From Spirochaetales bacterium (GTDB taxonomy: Bacteria > Spirochaetota > Spirochaetia > SZUA-6 > JAFGRV01), in NCBI GenBank assembly GCA_016937215.1, contig JAFGWI010000019.1:1-22156 (forward strand): a stretch of 22,156 bases of DNA, given 5' to 3'. The translations under genes and the position numbers were made by a program. The notes beneath the pieces were generated by a model. The model searched no databases, had not been told where the DNA came from, and saw only the letters and a program-made list of their open reading frames with translations. Below, one piece after another: positions 1,903-22,156 of this stretch (position 1 is its first letter; every line of letters begins with the position of its first letter).

Positions 1903-3246
1903 ATGAAAAAAACATTATTCTGCCTTATGCGGCCGGCGTTTTTATTTTTATTAGTGGTGATGATTTTGTTGTCCGCAATGGGCTGTGATGTGAGAAATGG
2001 GGCGGCTGAGGAAGGGCTTGGTGAAAAGGCTTTATTGGAACCCTTGGCTGTTATTGACCTGGGTGACCAAGGGGCTATCGAGTTTGTTGAGATTTCACCT
2101 GGTGAATTGGTTGTTGGCGCATTGCTGGGTTCTCCTGATGTTCAAATAAAGGGAATTGATGAATCTCCGCTGGCTGTTTACCGATTTTATACAGGCCAAG
2201 AGCCGCCAACTGAATTGCTGGCTGCTTATGAACGCAGCAAGGTTGCTCAGGCTTTGGATTCCGAGGTCACTGGTTCTGATAACCAGGTTATCCGTCAAGC
2301 TAGTTTGGCAGGCCAATCAAAAATGACGGCCAATGAATTTGAATCTGCCTATTTTAACGCGCCCAACATGAGCCAATATGATTATAAGGTGCTTTATAAA
2401 AATTCAACTGCTTTGTTCCGGACTATACAAAATTGTTTTACTCTTGGTATCCGGGTTTATTCCAGCCAGGGAACGGTCCGATTTAACCTGAAAACCAAAA
2501 TTGGAAGCAGCTGGTCAACTGAATATACCCGTGTTGTTCCTCAGGGAAGTACCTATTATGCTTATACTGGAGGAGTTTGGCGTTCCCGAATGGCGGAGGT
2601 TGTTGAGTCGGACAATGACATTTTCCAGGTAATGTATTTTGGAATGAAAAAAATTTTTGTTTGCGCGAGTTTTGGCGGAAGTTCCAGCACTGATATTCAT
2701 CCTGTTGTGGAAGAACAGGTAAAGGCCGAGGGGATTGTGTTCAATAGTAACAACTGGAATAAGAGTTCGGGTGATGGTGTGTGTTCAAGATCCGATGCTG
2801 ATCACGCGGCAGGAGTTATGAAAGACTGGGCTGCTTTGAATTCTCTGCCTCGGGCCAATATGAACCTTCTGGTTGTGGGTAAGAGCGCCGGAGGTGTCCG
2901 GGCCTGGTATGCTTTTAAACGGAATTTCGGGACACTTGATGATTTTAACAAAGTGGCACTGGTTTTTGTCGATCCCCATGGTTCAGCCCTTGGAGATGGT
3001 GAAGTTGGCACTTACAGCGACGATCAGAGCCTGACATGGCCATCATCCTGGTCCACCAACAAGAGCTTTTTCAGGGTCTATAATATTTATCAGCATTCAA
3101 ATGGATTAACAGGAGCCAGTTTTCCAAGTTCCAATGTTTATAAAAACATAAAAATTACCGGCAATAGTGTGAGTCATGATAATATTCCTGGCCGCCAGGA
3201 AACAAAGGATTTGATCAGAGAAGCTGTGAGGTTTTTAAAACCCTGA
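1903..3246 (+). CDS. Putative secreted lipoprotein, serine hydrolase (alpha/beta-hydrolase/lipase-esterase-like), 447 aa
   Basis: Signal peptide MKKTLFCLMRPAFLFLLVVMILLSAMGC with a Cys consistent with a lipobox. Nucleophile-elbow GxSxG motif in LLVVGKSAGGVRAWYAF, with downstream D and H candidates. SD-like aaaggagaaaag lies 5 nt before the ATG. Confidence 0.45.
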   Translation: MKKTLFCLMRPAFLFLLVVMILLSAMGCDVRNGAAEEGLGEKALLEPLAVIDLGDQGAIEFVEISPGELVVGALLGSPDVQIKGIDESPLAVYRFYTGQEPPTELLAAYERSKVAQALDSEVTGSDNQVIRQASLAGQSKMTANEFESAYFNAPNMSQYDYKVLYKNSTALFRTIQNCFTLGIRVYSSQGTVRFNLKTKIGSSWSTEYTRVVPQGSTYYAYTGGVWRSRMAEVVESDNDIFQVMYFGMKKIFVCASFGGSSSTDIHPVVEEQVKAEGIVFNSNNWNKSSGDGVCSRSDADHAAGVMKDWAALNSLPRANMNLLVVGKSAGGVRAWYAFKRNFGTLDDFNKVALVFVDPHGSALGDGEVGTYSDDQSLTWPSSWSTNKSFFRVYNIYQHSNGLTGASFPSSNVYKNIKITGNSVSHDNIPGRQETKDLIREAVRFLKP

Positions 3247-3277
3247 CAGAAATGCTTTGCATTTATTGCTTGGTGGA

Positions 3278-3389
3278 GTGAATTTTCATTGGCATTCACT
3301 TTTTGACGTGAATGCTCATTGGCATTCACTTTTTGACGTGAATGCTCATTGGCATTCACTTTTTGACGTGAATGCTCATTGGCATTCAC
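3278..3389. repeat. Tandem array of four 30-bp units, each carrying the palindrome GTGAATGC-TCATTG-GCATTCAC (REP-like); the first copy has a degenerate left arm (gtgaattt)
   Basis: Read directly from the sequence. Arms gtgaatgc at 3308, 3338 and 3368; arms gcattcac at 3292, 3322, 3352 and 3382; constant loop tcattg; constant inter-unit spacer tttttgac. A further degenerate palindrome aaatgctttgcattt sits at 3250-3264. The array lies between the stop of the hydrolase gene (3246) and its terminator hairpin (3435-3466), i.e. in its 3'UTR. ORFs 3257..3451 (+) and 3174..3506 (-) are translation artefacts of this repeat. Confidence 0.9.
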
Positions 3390-3434
3390 TTTTATCATGC
3401 CGTTATGCTGGAAAATATTGGGCAGAAAAGGCTT

Positions 3435-3480
3435 GGTTGTGCCTGTTATGAAAAATAGGCACAACCTGCTTTCTTTTTCG
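3435..3480 (+). terminator. Rho-independent terminator for the 1903-3246 gene
   Basis: Perfect 10-bp stem ggttgtgcct / aggcacaacc with a 12-nt loop, followed by tgctttctttttcg (T-rich tail). Confidence 0.55.
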
Positions 3481-3570
3481 AATGCATTCAAAAAAATAGC
3501 CCCCATTTAGCTAAACAAATACTTCACAGGCAGCTATAATCTGTAAAAATCATCGTTTTTAGAGCTATTT

Positions 3571-5671: not shown

Positions 5672-5700
5672 TTGACCTGGAATGTAACTTGTACTATATT
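5672..5700 (+). promoter_or_regulatory. Sigma70-type promoter for the GntR-SPFH operon
   Basis: TTGACC (5672-5677), 17-bp spacer, TATATT (5695-5700). Confidence 0.45.
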
Positions 5701-5733
5701 TATATTGTATTAAGACATTAGTACAATAGTACA
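5690..5733 (+). promoter_or_regulatory. Candidate autoregulatory operator: TGTACTA (5690-5696, overlapping the -10) ... TAGTACA (5719-5725) A TAGTACA (5727-5733)
   Basis: Inverted and direct heptamer repeats with a GTAC core lie between the -10 and the GntR start. YtrA-subfamily GntR repressors bind short inverted repeats overlapping their own promoters (established knowledge). The assignment here is inference. Confidence 0.35.
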
Positions 5734-5749
5734 TTCATACATTGCAATA

Positions 5750-6217
5750 ATGTCTATAAACCTGGATAAGGGCTTTGTAAAAAAGCCCCGGGAACATGGA
5801 GGAATCAGGTTTATGCAGGATAAGATTCATGAAGAACTTGAATTTACTCTGGACCCCAAGAGCGGGGTTCCGTTTTATAAACAGATTATTCTACAGATAG
5901 AGATGGCCATAGCTGACAAGAGGCTGAATCAGGGTGACCAGCTGCCTACTGTTCGAGGGCTGGCAGTAGATTTGCAGGTGAATCCCAATACCGTGGCCCG
6001 GGCTTACAGTGAACTGGAAATCCGGGGGATTGTGAACACGCAACAAGGCACAGGAACCTTTATCAGCGACAAGAAGATCAAGCTCACCGAGGTAGAACGG
6101 GAAAGGATTCTGGCCGAGTTGGTGAGGGGATTTGTTTCCAAAGCGTCGTCCTATGGCTTTTCCCTGGCAGAGATCAGGACCTATCTGGAAGATCTGGAAA
6201 AAGATAAAGAGGAATAG
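5750..6217 (+). CDS. GntR-family transcriptional regulator, short YtrA-like subtype
   Basis: Winged-HTH signature LPTVRGLAVDLQVNPNTVARAYSELEIRGIVNTQQGTGTFI with only a short C-terminal extension. The ATG at 5750 has no SD. An internal ATG at 5813 (MQDKIHEEL...) is preceded by GGAGG at 5798-5802 and is the more likely true start, giving about 134 aa. Confidence 0.75.
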   Translation: MSINLDKGFVKKPREHGGIRFMQDKIHEELEFTLDPKSGVPFYKQIILQIEMAIADKRLNQGDQLPTVRGLAVDLQVNPNTVARAYSELEIRGIVNTQQGTGTFISDKKIKLTEVERERILAELVRGFVSKASSYGFSLAEIRTYLEDLEKDKEE

Positions 6218-6228
6218 GAGGAATTTTA

Positions 6229-7359
6229 ATGCTGGAGAAATTGACTTTTAAGGAACATAACCGAATTAAAAATTTGCCGAAATTGCATTTGCCCAAGGAT
6301 TTCGGTTATAATGCTTTTTCGTTTCTGGTGCTGGGCCTGTTTTTGGCTGCCGGAATCGTGATTCAAAACCTGGCCGTTGGTGAATTGGAATCGGAGGTGA
6401 TTCTGGCTGTCGTTCTGGGCACTTTTATGTGCGGCGGAATTTTGTACCTTGTTCCCATGTGGATCGCGGTGATTCAGTTTTCCATATTGGCCTGGGTTGG
6501 CCTTTATGTGGGAGTCGGCGGGAATATTTATCCCTTGTTCGGATTTCTGGTAGCTGCCTTTTTGTTTTCATCCTGCTTTCAACTGGTTCAGCATTGGGAC
6601 AAGGTAGTGATTCTGCGTTTCGGCAAATTCAGAAAAGCCAGAGGGCCAGGCTTGTTTTTGCTTTTTCCGATTATCGACCGTGTGGCTGCTTTTGTGGATA
6701 CCCGGATTCGAGCCACTGATTTCAGCGCTGAAAAAACTCTCACAGCAGATACGGTTCCTGTTCATGTGGACGCGCTGGCTTTCTGGATGGTTTGGGATGT
6801 GAAAGGGGCTGTGCTTGAGGTGGAGGATTTTGTGGAAGCTGTGGTTCTTTCTGCCCAGACTGCTTTGCGAGACGGCATTGGCAAGCATGAATTGGCCGAT
6901 CTATTGTCTGACCGGGACCAGCTGGGCAAGGAGATTCAGAAAATTCTTGATGCTAAAACAAGCCCCTGGGGCATTACGATTCTATCGATTGAAATTACTG
7001 ATATTATTATTCCCAAGGAACTGGAAGATGCCATGAGCCGACGTGCCCAGGCAGAGAGGGAGCGACAATCCCGGGTAATTCTGGGAACTGCGGAACTGGA
7101 AGTAGCTGATAAATTTCAACAGGCCGCGGAGAAATATAAAGATAATCCTACCGCCCTGCATTTACGCGCCATGAACATGATTTACGAGGGTATACGTAAA
7201 AAAGGCACTATCATGCTTCTGCCATCGAGTGCCCTGGATTCCATGTCTCTTGGCGCCAATCTGGGGGCATTGAATCTGGCCAAGGATTTTCAGCAGGGAA
7301 AGTTGGATGACTCATTTTTGCCTGATGAAGAAAAGGGAAATGGCGAAGCTGAGGATTAG
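6229..7359 (+). CDS. SPFH/band-7 (stomatin/prohibitin-like) membrane protein, 376 aa
   Basis: N-terminal hydrophobic helices. SPFH core VILRFGKF..GPGLFLLFPIIDRV...TADTVPVHVDALAFW...ITILSIEITDIIIPKELEDAMSRRAQAERERQSRVILGTAELE, then a coiled-coil and acidic tail. GGAGGA SD 7 nt before the ATG. The gene starts 11 bp after the GntR stop, so the two form an operon. Internal overlapping ORFs are spurious. Confidence 0.8.
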   Translation: MLEKLTFKEHNRIKNLPKLHLPKDFGYNAFSFLVLGLFLAAGIVIQNLAVGELESEVILAVVLGTFMCGGILYLVPMWIAVIQFSILAWVGLYVGVGGNIYPLFGFLVAAFLFSSCFQLVQHWDKVVILRFGKFRKARGPGLFLLFPIIDRVAAFVDTRIRATDFSAEKTLTADTVPVHVDALAFWMVWDVKGAVLEVEDFVEAVVLSAQTALRDGIGKHELADLLSDRDQLGKEIQKILDAKTSPWGITILSIEITDIIIPKELEDAMSRRAQAERERQSRVILGTAELEVADKFQQAAEKYKDNPTALHLRAMNMIYEGIRKKGTIMLLPSSALDSMSLGANLGALNLAKDFQQGKLDDSFLPDEEKGNGEAED

Positions 7360-7501
7360 GCAATCAACTGGAGGCAAAATGTGATCCATGGCATTGAGTT
7401 GTTTGGGAATTTTTTGGGCGTTGCCTGATAAGCCCGGGACAACAATTCTATATTTGAGTACAAATATTACGAATTGCGAGTTATTTTACTTCGGTGCTGT
7501 G

Positions 7502-7590
7502 GCCATTCCAAATATAAACTATTATTAAGGCAGTTAAAAATCATCAGCTGTAATTAAATTGCATACAAAAAGGTTTATATTTGGAATGGC
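7502..7590. repeat. Perfect 18-bp inverted repeat gccattccaaatataaac / gtttatatttggaatggc separated by 53 AT-rich nt
   Basis: Read directly: 7502-7519 is the exact reverse complement of 7573-7590. Could be a stem-loop RNA or a MITE-like element. Confidence 0.85.
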
Positions 7591-7614
7591 TTAGCCGGGG
7601 GCTTTCAGGCTGCA

Positions 7615-7705
7615 GAAACTGTTGCATAACTATAATTAAGAGTATTTCAACTCGCCTACTGGGTCCATAATTGGTTTAGACGAGTTATTCATAGGCAACA
7701 GTTTC
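7615..7705. repeat. Second long-range inverted repeat gaaactgttgc(ataact) / (agttat)tcatag-gcaacagtttc enclosing about 70 nt
   Basis: 11-bp perfect arms at 7615-7625 and 7695-7705. A 6-bp extension (ataact/agttat) is interrupted by a 6-nt bulge. Confidence 0.6.
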
Positions 7706-7832
7706 GTATTTTAAGGTTGTGCAACAACCTCTGCATGGCCGAGCAACAAATCGAAGATTTGTGACAAGGCCCGCCACTTCGGCTTCGCCTTCGAAGGTTA
7801 AGGTGCGGAAGTTATCCGCCCCTTAACGCTTT

Positions 7833-7862
7833 GTTCGACTATTTTTGAAAAAATAGTCGAAC
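7833..7862. promoter_or_regulatory. Perfect 14+14 bp palindrome gttcgactattttt-ga-aaaaatagtcgaac about 120 bp upstream of the ABC operon
   Basis: Read directly. Flanked by near-direct repeats ccttaacgcttt (7821-7832) and ccctaacgctttt (7875-7887). The AT-rich centre ctatttttgaaaaaatag is nearly the reverse complement of the palindrome at the head of element A (1568-1587). Candidate protein operator or element boundary. Confidence 0.5.
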
Positions 7863-7982
7863 ATGGCTTCAATCCCTAACGCTTTTAGCCGGGGTGCTGT
7901 TATTGGCTAGAGAGGCAGGAAGCATATATTCCGCTGACTTGCTTCCATCAAGGAAATCATAGATTTGGAAAAGGAGAGAACG

Positions 7983-8660
7983 ATGATACAAGTAAAAGAT
8001 GTAGAAAGGACCTATGTTGCTGGAGATACCAAGGTCCATGCCCTGAAAGGGGTCAGTTTATCGGTTAAAGAAGGGGAATTCCTTTCCATTGCCGGGCCTT
8101 CAGGGTCGGGGAAAACAACCCTTTTGAACATTATCGGATGCATTGATGATGCTGATAAGGGTGATGTGATTATTGATCAGGTGGATGTGCGCAGCAAAAA
8201 ACCCGATGAACTAGCCGTATTTCGCCGTGAAAAGCTGGGTTTTGTGTTTCAAACCTTTAATTTGATTCCTGTAATGTCTGCTTATGAAAATGTGGAAATG
8301 GTTTTGAAACTACTAAAGATTTCCGACGCTGAGGCCCGTGAAAGGACCATGGCCATTTTAAAAGAAGTTGGTCTGGAAGGTATGGAAGACAGACGCCCCA
8401 GCCGCTTGTCCGGAGGGCAGCAGCAGAGAGTGGCCATTGCCCGCGCTTTGGTAAAAAACCCGACCCTGGTGCTGGCTGATGAACCTACTGCCAATCTTGA
8501 TTCAGTAACAGGTAAAGCGGTTCTGGATATCATGAAGGCCATGAACAAAAAATACGGCACAGCTTTTATTTTTTCAACCCACGACAAAATGGTCATGGAT
8601 TTCGCGGAGCGTTTGGTTATGCTTCATGATGGCAAAATCGAAAGCGATAAAAGGAGGTAA
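7983..8660 (+). CDS. ABC transporter ATP-binding protein, MacB/LolD family
   Basis: Walker A GPSGSGKTT, signature LSGGQQQRVAIARAL, Walker B LVLADEPT, H-loop STHD. The ORF-track start at 7965 lacks an SD. The ATG at 7983 (MIQVKDVERTY) follows AAGGAGAG with a 5-nt spacer and is taken as the start. Confidence 0.9.
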   Translation: MIQVKDVERTYVAGDTKVHALKGVSLSVKEGEFLSIAGPSGSGKTTLLNIIGCIDDADKGDVIIDQVDVRSKKPDELAVFRREKLGFVFQTFNLIPVMSAYENVEMVLKLLKISDAEARERTMAILKEVGLEGMEDRRPSRLSGGQQQRVAIARALVKNPTLVLADEPTANLDSVTGKAVLDIMKAMNKKYGTAFIFSTHDKMVMDFAERLVMLHDGKIESDKRR

Positions 8661-13172: not shown

Positions 13173-13233
13173 AGGTGGTGTTAGCTCTTGTCTCTTTTTC
13201 AAAGCGAAAGGGAGATTAACACCGCCTTTTTTC
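13173..13233 (+). terminator. Rho-independent terminator of the ABC/LolA-like/OMP operon
   Basis: Stem ggtggtgttag (13173-13183) pairing with ttaacaccgcc (13216-13226) with G-U wobbles, followed by ttttttc (13227-13233). Confidence 0.55.
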
Positions 13234-13278
13234 ATTGGCTATTGTGCTGAATGTGTTAGTGATTGGAGCTGTGAGGAG

Positions 13279-13397
13279 GTTTTTTTCAAAAAACCGACGA
13301 AAAGCTTTTTGCCGCGTTTTTAGCGGCAAAAACTTCGGAGCGAAAGCGGAGCAGTGGAATGAACGGCCCCGGAAGGGTGTTTTTGTGCCGGTTTTTT
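13279..13397 (+). ncRNA. Candidate structured RNA/regulatory element, copy B (paralogue of 1564-1735)
   Basis: Palindrome ggttttttt-c-aaaaaacc (13279-13296). Hairpin ttgccgc-gttttta-gcggcaa (13309-13329). cttcgg + agcgaaagcggag (13333-13351). T6 run at 13392-13397. Same order and spacing as copy A, with compensatory changes in the 7-bp hairpin. Confidence 0.3.
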
Positions 13398-17499: not shown

Positions 17500-17686
17500 G
17501 GGTGACTCCTTGTGCTATAAAGTGGCTTTAAAAGCCCTGTTTTTTTGCTGACCCCTTCTCTGAGCCAGGCAGCTGGTTTTCAATCCCCTAGGGAATAGGA
17601 AGCAGGCAAGCTTGTTTTTCAAAACAAACGCAGCCAGCAACAACCATGCTGGCCAAAGCTGACAAGCGCAATCAGGCTGCATGGAT

Positions 17687-17744
17687 ATAGTGAATCCCAA
17701 TGAGGATTCACGTGGACATAGTGAATCCCAATGAGGATTCACGT
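17687..17744. repeat. Two tandem 27-bp units (31-bp period) each containing the palindrome GTGAATCC-CAATGA-GGATTCAC
   Basis: Read directly. atagtgaatcccaatgaggattcacgt appears at 17687-17713 and again at 17718-17744. Read on the minus strand it is GTGAATCC-TCATTG-GGATTCAC, the same loop and arm family as the 3278-3389 array. Located in the divergent region between the LTD lipoprotein gene and the Crp/Fnr-like gene. Confidence 0.85.
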
Positions 17745-21094: not shown

Positions 21095-22156
21095 TTAGTT
21101 ATTCATCATAGTAGCGCAAAAAACGATAAAATTTTGAGCCGGGTATTCGATCCCATTTATTGTAACGGTCCCAACAGCTGTATCTGTGTAGATAGTATCA
21201 CTCGTAACATCATAATTAGCCACAATCGTTGAAATGGTCGTTGAGTCAAAAGTAATAACCAAATTTGCGGTTATGGTTCTGGTCGTGTCTTCATTAAAGG
21301 TTTCTGAAAGTGTTCCGTTTACTGAAAATGGATGTGGTGAAGTTGGTAAGGGTGTATTTGTGAATGTTGTTATTTGTCCATTATCAGAGATGGGTGTTTT
21401 CTCAATGGTGGGATCCTGATCTCCAGCAGCCCAGCTGAGCATCATTGCTGTGAATAAAAAATTATATCCTATTTCTTCATTGTCTATTTCAGGATCTGGT
21501 GTTACTTCAGGGTCGTTTGAAATATTTTGAATCAAATAAGTATAAAATGCCTGAGCGTTTATTTCAACATCGTTTATAATAATTGTACCGACTGCAATAG
21601 GATCGGCTATGTTCGAATTGTCATAATCAAATGACCCGTTGATTGTGAATAAATTGGGGTCATTGGTGAAAATGAAATTGAAAGTTATATTTCCGTTTAT
21701 TTCTGTGCCAGTTGATAATAAATTTCCGCTTGCCTTATAATCTGGTTCTTCTGAATTGTATACAGCATTATTTAAAGTTGCATTCATCACGCCATCACTA
21801 TTGCTAGCTGAAACTGTTGTGCCATCAGGGTCAGTGATCTGTCGATAAAGATTTGTGCATACCTCATAAGCATATAATTCTGTTTCTTCATTTAACACCG
21901 GGATTTCAGTTACTTCAGGTTCCGGTGTCACTTCAGGTTCCGGTGTCACTTCAGGTTCTGGTGTCACTTCAGGTTCTGGTGTCACTTCAGGTTCTGGTGT
22001 CACTTCAGGTTCCGGTGTCACTTCAGGTTCTGGTGTCACTTCAGGTTCCGGTGTTACTTCAGGTTCCGGTGTTACTTCAGGTTCCGGTGTTACTTCAGGT
22101 TCCGGTGTTACTTCAGGTTCCGGTGTTACTTCAGGTTCTGGTGTTACTTCAGGTTC
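21095..22156 (-). CDS. Secreted/surface repeat protein, 5'-truncated by the window edge: N-terminal (TPEPEV)n linker then two related Thr/Asn/Ile-rich beta-type domains
   Basis: The reading frame is open to the end of the window. The M at 22039 in the ORF track is a GTG (Val) codon inside the repeat, not a start. The C-terminal part contains an internal duplication ([22 protein letters not shown] vs [22 protein letters not shown]). Confidence 0.7.
21911..22156. repeat. At least 13 tandem copies of the 18-bp unit ggttcYggtgtYacttca (encoding TPEPEV on the minus strand), continuing past the window end
   Basis: Read directly. Units differ only at two Y positions, which fall on third codon positions (ccg/cca Pro, gtg/gta Val). 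Confidence 0.9.

Follow-up and report, generated by a model that had tools for sequence, protein, structure and literature searches.

The 623-bp spacer (positions 7360-7982) that separates an SPFH/Band-7 membrane protein gene from an ABC ATPase gene in an uncultured Spirochaetales lineage is probably DNA that this lineage acquired and that was wedged into an operon. It forms a chain of hairpin modules, the last ~130 bp of which are a copy of a dispersed repeat. The window analysed here is a whole contig of 22,156 bp from an NCBI metagenome-assembled genome (MAG) labelled Spirochaetales bacterium. The spacer is novel to this lineage and lies within an operon that is tightly packed in its relatives, and positions 7776-7904 are one member of a dispersed, non-coding, two-hairpin repeat family (the H1-H2 family) that was previously undescribed.

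An alignment search with the permeases of the operon retrieved fifty-two spirochaete loci, and the arrangement gntR, SPFH, ATPase, permease, permease, LolA-like, unknown recurs widely among them. In 31 of the 32 related loci that have SPFH upstream, -23 to +83 bp separate the SPFH stop from the ATPase start, and these genes mostly overlap. The exception (L012, 1855-3314) has a gap of 1458 bp, but this is filled by an extra FtsX-type permease gene and not by non-coding DNA. Measured against these loci, the spacer is therefore an insertion peculiar to this lineage. The nearest ATPase homologue in the collections is only ~73% identical, with no close relative found (a genome scan was also empty).

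A first-pass annotation of this DNA, made from the sequence alone, had placed the spacer at 7360-7964. Its left edge was correct, but the true end is 7982, as the ATPase starts at ATG 7983, in agreement with the recorded protein and with the N-termini of relatives; TTG 7965 only lengthens the ATPase open reading frame (ORF). The same annotation called the spacer unusually long, which is so against orthologous loci but not within this contig, where seven other spacers measure 232-583 bp. As it also stated, no ORF above ~70 aa is present: the longest that touch the spacer are 56 and 46 aa, the latter (7388-7528) with a hydrophobic N-terminus. Ten ORF fragments from the spacer had no Pfam match, and its concatenated reading-frame fragments had no homologue in the protein database. 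Two possible coding ancestors were tried and rejected. The best match of the TetR protein of locus L004 to the spacer (tblastn) had E = 0.15, which argues against a decayed tetR gene, and 2062 ORF fragments from fifty-four related loci gave chance-level matches only, which argues against a remnant of a neighbouring gene.

The spacer is also strongly folded. Its folding z over all 623 nt is -10.7 on the plus strand and -8.8 on the minus strand. Separately made shuffles gave -9.1 and -7.5, against -1.4 to +1.6 for four coding controls of equal length. All inverted repeats in the first-pass annotation were recovered by reading the sequence from 7200 to 8200 and with a repeat finder. The 18-mer of one of them, a perfect inverted repeat that we refer to as IR1, occurs twice at three or fewer mismatches where 0.08 occurrences are expected. 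Judged by this count and by the folding z, the dyad symmetry does exceed chance.

The evidence that part of this DNA is repetitive came from a sensitive BLASTN comparison of the spacer with the rest of the window, in which 7806-7904 matched 1619-1521 on the opposite strand (72% over 99 nt, E = 1e-9). A covariance model (CM) made from two copies and run on the window with filters off recovered two more, the next unrelated match scoring 15 bits, and a refined four-copy CM added a fifth at E = 0.04; E-values from these home-built models are rough. The spacer and the family copies are as follows.

7360-7982, no strand assigned: the whole SPFH-to-ATPase spacer, a lineage-specific insertion (gaps in relatives, folding z, no coding remnant).
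7776-7904, plus strand: copy c1 (BLASTN self-match E 1e-9, alignment, CM matches, covariation, Logan contig L003).
1521-1636, minus strand: copy c2, between two divergently transcribed lipoprotein genes (CM 140.6/128.7 bits; alignment).
13231-13340, minus strand: copy c3, in a convergent spacer, with H1 kept with new base pairs and H2 degenerate (CM R1 43.7 bits, E 1.4e-10; R2 87.9 bits).
3392-3507, plus strand: copy c4, in a convergent spacer (CM R1 42.0 bits, E 4e-10; R2 108.6 bits).
17562-17652, minus strand: probable diverged copy c5, with the H2 centre and tail kept (CM R2 16.1 bits, E 0.04; sequence).

There are thus four firm copies and one probable copy within 22 kb, with an element length of ~116-130 nt. 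All five are intergenic (two in divergent spacers, two in convergent ones and one where the flanking genes run in the same direction), and five of the eight spacers longer than 200 bp contain one. The density is ~1 copy per 4-5 kb in this contig, from which all of the family statistics are drawn. Several dispersed intergenic copies of less than 200 bp are what is expected of an interspersed repeat.

Near c2, a promoter match (TTGACA-18-TAGAGT, 1378-1349, minus strand) ends 7 nt before ATG 1341 of a 404-aa lipoprotein gene. This spacing suggests a leaderless or near-leaderless mRNA for that gene. Copy c2 sits upstream of the promoter match and outside the transcript.

Within c1 the following parts can be told apart.

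7776-7797: CTYCG motifs with CTTCGAAGG.
7797-7809/7815-7827: hairpin H1, followed by the linker GCTT.
7832-7845/7850-7863: hairpin H2, the 14+14 palindrome.
7863-7898: conserved tail CATGGCTTCAATCCCTAACGCTTTTAGCCGGGGTGCT; the CM match itself extends to 7904.

Copies c1 and c2 align without gaps through CTYCGAAGG, H1 (GTT-stem-ARTTA-stem-AAC), the linker GCTT, H2 and the tail. Their stems diverge, yet pairing is kept by compensatory changes, while loops, linker and tail are conserved. The H1 stem is AAGGtGCGGA/TCCGCcCCTT in c1 and TTATGCCGGA/TCCGGCATAA in c2, and the H2 stem is GTTCGAC../..GTCGAAC in c1 and GGCTTGC../..GCAAGCC in c2. The centre of H2 is conserved as ATTTTTGAAAAAAT, with T(4-5)GA(5-6) and the loop kept in all five copies, and the tail (~35 nt) reads CATGsCTyCwATCCCTAACrCTT..GGTGCT. 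Between c1 and c2, both sides are changed in 10 of the 27 pairs. Among the four firm copies, double changes affect 17 of the 27, and 89% of cells are paired; sliding the partners by one to three columns leaves 44-48% paired, and none of 500 shuffles reaches the observed value. The four-copy alignment behind these figures had been fitted to the CM; RNAalifold on an independent MAFFT alignment arrives at both helices again and finds covariation at 18 of 28 pairs. The folding z of each copy is -5 to -5.8.

Several features listed in the first-pass annotation belong to this structure. The 10-bp palindrome CCTTCGAAGG is at 7788-7797, preceded by CTTCG motifs, and the 14+14 palindrome is perfect (7833-7846/7849-7862). 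The direct repeats said to flank it are present (CCTTAACGCTTT at 7821 and CCCTAACGCTTT at 7874, 11/12 identical), but they are not a target-site duplication: they represent a motif inside the element (AACGCTTT / AACRCTT) that is conserved and recurs in other copies. Like these direct repeats, the 'cttcgg motifs' are internal features of the H1-H2 family.

Two copies have further hairpins attached. Copy c4 is directly preceded by four tandem 30-nt hairpin units (3269-3388, plus strand) and c5, in element orientation, by two tandem 31-nt units (17682-17743, read on the minus strand). The unit hairpin is GTGAATsCTCATTGssATTCAC, and the two loci differ in it by a compensatory change, GC/GC against CC/GG. 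Because the tandem units adjoin c4 and c5 on the same side, the family looks composite, a pattern supported by these two copies only; the GTGAAT..ATTCAC units are absent at c1-c3.

An annotated hypothetical gene, JXR70_01345 (3174-3506, minus strand, 105-110 aa, with KVNANEHSRQ three times), reads through the tandem hairpins and c4. Its 110-aa ORF matched only itself among 5.8 billion proteins, and it is probably a spurious gene call. Reverse-strand peptides of c1 and c2 (MFDYFFKN.. and MACYFFKN..) were also considered as coding sequence and rejected: their differences fall on covarying stem positions, and c4 has no start codon.

Beyond the window, the family appears restricted to this lineage across the related loci and the viral, plasmid and phage collections. 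Across 403 kb of related spirochaete loci (L004-L061) the H1-H2 CM had no match with E < 0.3, degenerate patterns for the family and for the tandem hairpin had zero matches in viral contigs, and neither plasmids nor phages contained a blastn match to the spacer. Rfam 15, the check proposed in the first-pass annotation, returned zero matches at gathering thresholds over both strands of the whole window. At E <= 10, positions 7300-8050 had only chance matches to miRNA and snoRNA models. No tRNA or tmRNA was found.

The left part of the spacer consists of other hairpins.

7443-7476, no strand assigned: weak AT-rich hairpin, CAATTC..GAATTG around the palindrome 7450-7467 (folding z only -1.2).
7502-7590, no strand assigned: IR1, a hairpin of 89 nt whose AT-rich core lies between perfect terminal arms of 18 bp (folding z -6.1/-4.9).
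7611-7735, no strand assigned: long imperfect hairpin with an inner hairpin at 7713-7729 (repeat finder; folding z -3.7/-5.2).
7737-7771, no strand assigned: hairpin GGCC..CAAATC-GAA-GATTTG..GGCC, immediately 5' of c1 (repeat finder, folding).

The first of these surrounds the palindrome ATATTTG-AGTA-CAAATAT, which is present as described earlier but spans 7450-7467, one base less than the 7450-7468 given for it; the likeness of the hairpin to the H2 centre is not significant (CM E = 1.7). The arms of IR1 (7502-7519/7573-7590) are perfect, as reported, and the repeat continues to 37 nt at 78% complementarity. The 11-bp arms GAAACTGTTGC and GCAACAGTTTC are likewise found at 7615-7625 and 7695-7705, in a hairpin whose left arm (7611-7635) has alternative partners at 7685-7705 or 7711-7735. 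At the relative position matching the 7737-7771 hairpin, c2 has an unrelated hairpin.

We infer that these left-hand modules are further small repeats of the same general kind as H1-H2. The search for extra copies that had been proposed for IR1 found none in the data covered: there is no second copy in the window, in eighty-five loci or in the JGI metagenome, viral, plasmid and phage collections. Its exact 18-mer occurs at twenty-four JGI metagenome loci as a single arm each, with no wider similarity, which is chance level, and as two single matches in viral contigs. The 7611-7735 hairpin has no other copy in the spacers of the window, and nhmmer with each left-hand module found nothing in the window's other spacers. 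No target-site duplication is present at IR1, where the flanks read ..TGTG | TTAG... Of the three candidate explanations in the first-pass annotation, MITE-like insertions came closest, but the piece it picked, the 18-bp inverted repeat, is not the one shown to be repeated, which is the 14+14 palindrome together with its adjacent hairpin and flanking motifs.

The flanks of IR1 (7485-7501 TTTTACTTCGGTGCTGT; 7591-7604 TTAGCCGGGGGCT) resemble the family tail at 7881-7899 (TTTTAGCCGGGGTGCTGT), a resemblance that is not statistically supported. A degenerate sixth copy at 7443-7501 into which IR1 had landed was considered and found no support (CM E = 1.7, nhmmer nothing).

Two Logan assemblies of the source samples (SRR13394436 and SRR13394437) bear on this part of the spacer. 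Their contigs are identical to the window at 7360-7472 and at 7736-7982, the latter including c1, but the assemblies stop at 7468 and 7472 and resume at 7736. IR1 and the 7611-7735 hairpin lie between the breaks at ~7470 and 7736, the second of which comes directly after 7735, where the outer arm of that hairpin ends. The other end of L001 stops at 3364, inside tandem repeats. Such breaks hint that 7473-7735 is repeated or polymorphic, but would arise equally if strong hairpins had been poorly covered.

The operon into which the spacer was inserted includes the following features.

5672-5735, plus strand: ancestral operon promoter TTGACC-17-TATATT and YtrA-type GntR operator ATTGTAYTAA..TTAGTACAAT (upstream regions of relatives; half-site cluster).
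5813-6217: short GntR regulator.
6229-7359: SPFH/Band-7 membrane protein.
7370-7384, plus strand: Shine-Dalgarno-like GGAGG, 4 nt and an ATG-TGA start-stop (sequence; junctions in relatives).
7903-7930, plus strand: sigma-70-like promoter candidate TTGGCT-16-TATATT (consensus scan only, 9/12 matches).
7973-7985, plus strand: present ribosome-binding site GGAGAG and ABC ATPase ATG (sequence, recorded protein, relatives).
7983-8660: ABC ATPase.

Two FtsX/MacB-type permeases, a LolA-like protein and a 381-aa protein without a family follow, in this order, 3' of the ATPase. All 27 of the related loci examined (in the range L012-L061) have, 5' of the short gntR, a TTGACA-17-TAnAnT promoter with which the palindrome ATTGTACTAA-N4-6-TTAGTACAAT overlaps; L001, the window's own sequence, was part of this comparison of upstream regions. 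The palindrome is very likely an autoregulatory YtrA-type operator of the whole gntR-SPFH-ABC-LolA-like operon, and the region corresponding to 5672-5735 is likely to control the whole gene set in relatives. Together with the conserved gene order, this promoter and palindrome indicate that ancestrally these genes formed a single, tightly coupled operon controlled from a YtrA-type GntR operator. The GGAGG/ATG-TGA site at 7370-7384 lies 11-25 nt past the SPFH stop, matching the position of the ATPase ribosome-binding site and start in relatives, and may either be left over from the coupled start of the ancestor or still work as a start-stop site.

In some relatives the upstream genes differ. A TetR-family gene overlaps or abuts the ATPase start in L004, L005, L010, L011 and L048 (overlapping it in four lineages: L004, L010, L011 and L048), where it replaces gntR-SPFH directly upstream of the transporter operon. 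This replacement indicates that the regulator of the transporter was swapped during evolution.

Taken together, these observations suggest how the locus may have formed. The spacer would have grown by accretion of small structured interspersed repeats, among them the H1-H2 family, which, like BOX, ERIC, REP/BIME or MITE elements, may be spreading or once have spread as a small interspersed repeat that does not move autonomously. Either a mobilising or host protein could recognise its hairpins, or selection on the transcript could preserve them. The insertion would have broken the translational coupling of SPFH and ATPase. The transporter genes may now be expressed from transcripts that begin at the gntR promoter and read on through 623 nt of structured RNA between the cistrons, with the hairpins attenuating or stabilising the message; the analogy of BIME, ERIC, Correia and BOX elements leads one to expect such effects (PMC3049150). 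Alternatively, these genes may be driven from the promoter-like site at 7903-7930, which starts at the end of the c1 tail, ends 52 nt before ATG 7983 and has a -10 hexamer identical to that of the gntR promoter. We regard any particular consequence of the insertion for expression as tentative and somewhat less probable than its absence.

Several points weigh against reading the spacer as a string of acquired mobile repeats. The copies were counted in 22 kb of this genome only, and neither IR1 nor the 7611-7735 hairpin occurs a second time in any data searched. The H1-H2 family has no evident terminal inverted repeats, target-site duplications or empty sites. With no transposase gene in the window, it is from the dispersal of the copies alone that we infer mobility. 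That copies only ~72% identical keep their structure is no harder to explain by selection for a host function than by a purely selfish element. The segment 7473-7735 is supported by the MAG assembly alone, and the promoter at 7903-7930 is a candidate that matches the consensus at 9 of 12 positions.

The combination of covarying stems with conserved loops and a conserved tail leaves room for a hairpin module recognised by a protein. There is a small chance that the two-hairpin element is a structure-specific recognition module under purifying selection, either a mobilisation substrate read by its hairpins or a multi-copy cis-RNA signal. As a mobilisation substrate it would belong to an undescribed HUH/RAYT-like system in Spirochaetota. 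As a cis-RNA signal it would let one protein co-ordinate the processing or decay of many transcripts, and the insertion would be an adaptive re-wiring of the operon.

A related proposal is that the family is a functional transcript-end or attenuator module, with c1 ending or attenuating the gntR-SPFH transcript and the transporter starting from a new downstream promoter. A window-wide scan for terminator-like sites gave its best ranks to c4 H2, c2 H1, c3 H1, an H1-like hairpin of c5 and the tandem GTGAAT hairpins, all in element orientation, so that the top sites are hairpins of the sister copies. Copies c3 and c4 are downstream of and co-oriented with a gene in their convergent spacers, a promoter-like site begins where the c1 tail ends, and compensatory change keeps the structure. 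However, orientation is uninformative in a convergent spacer, where either one suits one of the two genes, and c2 and c5 are in divergent spacers with nothing obvious transcribed into them. Copy c1 itself was not flagged: its H1 has a U.C mismatch and no U-run past the stem, and no terminator-like site was found on either strand in 7200-8100. The U-tracts that do occur are short and interrupted (GCUUUG, after H1), and a terminator role leaves the conserved 35-nt tail and loops unexplained. We consider this explanation unlikely.

Another possibility is that the 14+14 palindrome (H2) acts as duplex DNA, as the operator of a dimeric regulator (the adjacent YtrA-type GntR protein, or a global factor reading ATTTTTGAAAAAAT), in which case the family would mark a regulon. 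Such a role would agree with the conservation of the H2 centre and loop in all five copies, with the promoter-proximal positions of c1, c2 and c5 and with the short GntR regulator encoded two genes upstream. Yet the outer 6-7 bp of the arms differ wholly between copies and remain complementary, which is the pattern of a hairpin and not of a sequence-specific operator, and c3 and c4 are in convergent 3' spacers. A second GntR operator in the spacer was also looked for and rejected. Compared with the operator of relatives (ATTGTACTAA..TTAGTACAAT), the spacer holds a single half-site with two mismatches, which is chance level, and lacks paired, inverted ATTGTACTAA half-sites; over the whole window such half-sites are as frequent as chance predicts, and they cluster solely at 5688-5750. 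We regard a DNA operator as very unlikely.

Regulatory RNA came first among the candidates of the first-pass annotation: a long, structured 5' leader or an RNA resembling a riboswitch that would control the ABC/LolA-like transporter. The sense strand does fold very strongly, the alternative partners of 7611-7635 superficially resemble a terminator/antiterminator pair, and c1, c2 and c5 are upstream of and co-oriented with a gene. However, the orthologous operons are intact with essentially no spacer, which is missing in 31 of the 32 loci, and this rules out a conserved riboswitch or leader by a refuting condition that the first-pass annotation had itself set. In addition to the absence of any Rfam match, at gathering thresholds or at E <= 10, there is no U-tract terminator. 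The sole conserved structured part also occurs downstream of unrelated genes (c3, c4), and c2 is upstream of its gene's best promoter match. We now hold a leader of this kind to be highly improbable.

The same low standing applies to independent small RNA genes, another of the earlier candidates, or a locus resembling a type I toxin-antitoxin system. Local folds are strong, a promoter-like site is present on the minus strand at 7511-7483, and there is the 46-aa ORF at 7388-7528 with its hydrophobic N-terminus. Against this, the spacer has no canonical terminators and its sequence shows no conservation. Rfam and Pfam gave no match, the ORF fragments of the spacer have no protein-database homologue, and the reverse-strand peptides of c1 and c2 differ where the stems covary, with no start codon in c4.

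Finally, an assembly artefact in the middle of the spacer, where 7473-7735 is present in the MAG contig only, is least probable of all: both edges are identical in Logan contigs, at least 360 bp of non-orthologous DNA would remain without the middle, and repeats, strain polymorphism or strong hairpins with poor coverage would account for the breaks just as well. L001 has a further break at its other end, inside the tandem repeats at 3364.

One further observation concerns the right end of the window. At 21855-22156 (and also at 21485-21514) there are at least 14-17 tandem 18-nt units (CACTTCAGGTTCYGGTGT) in a minus-strand ORF (21095-22039), and the array runs off the contig end. The ORF presumably encodes a hexapeptide-repeat surface protein, and the tandem units are the reason that the contig ends at 22156.

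For this operon, an attractive riboswitch or leader reading is replaced by a reading in terms of repeats, which is testable. The locus would be a case of repeats splitting a translationally coupled operon and leaving its downstream genes on a new ribosome-binding site and perhaps a new promoter. The H1-H2 family also accounts for at least one doubtful gene call (JXR70_01345), and the four-copy CM can be used for masking the elements in related MAGs. If the hairpins are protein-recognition sites, they offer a handle on repeat mobilisation or RNA processing in spirochaetes.

Among known systems, BOX elements of Streptococcus pneumoniae are a close parallel. They are boxA-boxB(n)-boxC composites that may sit inside operons and be co-transcribed (PMC3049150). 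Both kinds of element are small (<200 bp), non-coding, intergenic, dispersed, highly structured and lineage-restricted, and the variable tandem units before the fixed part of H1-H2 (here four, two or zero) recall boxB, as far as two copies can show. They differ in host phylum, and BOX has ISSpn2-like terminal inverted repeats whereas none were seen in the H1-H2 family; BOX is set beside H1-H2 here by its description.

The MITEs (Correia, RUP, Nezha) resemble two parts of the spacer. IR1, at 89 bp, has perfect 18-bp terminal inverted repeats and an AT-rich, tightly folding core, and the H1-H2 family is small, intergenic and multi-copy. However, IR1 has no flanking target-site duplication and no second copy was found, and the family has no evident terminal inverted repeats or recognisable duplication.

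These last absences are shared by the non-autonomous derivatives of IS200/IS605-type elements, which have subterminal hairpins, lack terminal inverted repeats and insert without duplications. Such elements would fit both the missing repeats and duplications of H1-H2 and its conserved loops with varying stems. They differ in that the window has no Y1 (HUH) transposase gene and no target tetranucleotide was established, and IS608-type ends have hairpins that are alike, whereas H1 and H2 are dissimilar.

The enterobacterial ERIC/IRU and REP/BIME repeats attenuate transcription or alter the stability of flanking mRNA (PMC3049150). Like the modules described here, ERIC, REP and BIME are intergenic, often intercistronic structured repeats, and the palindrome mosaic of BIMEs recalls the hairpin mosaic of this spacer. 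REPs are, according to PMC3733652, single GC-rich palindromes of 20-40 nt with a GTAG or CGTC tag. On reading the sequence, no such tag is visible at the foot of the H1, H2 or GTGAAT hairpins, and the H1-H2 unit has two unlike hairpins and a 35-nt single-stranded tail. A survey of REPs covers only three Spirochaetota genomes (PMC12306157). On balance, we think it likely that H1-H2 is a new family of structured interspersed repeats of the BOX/ERIC/BIME type.

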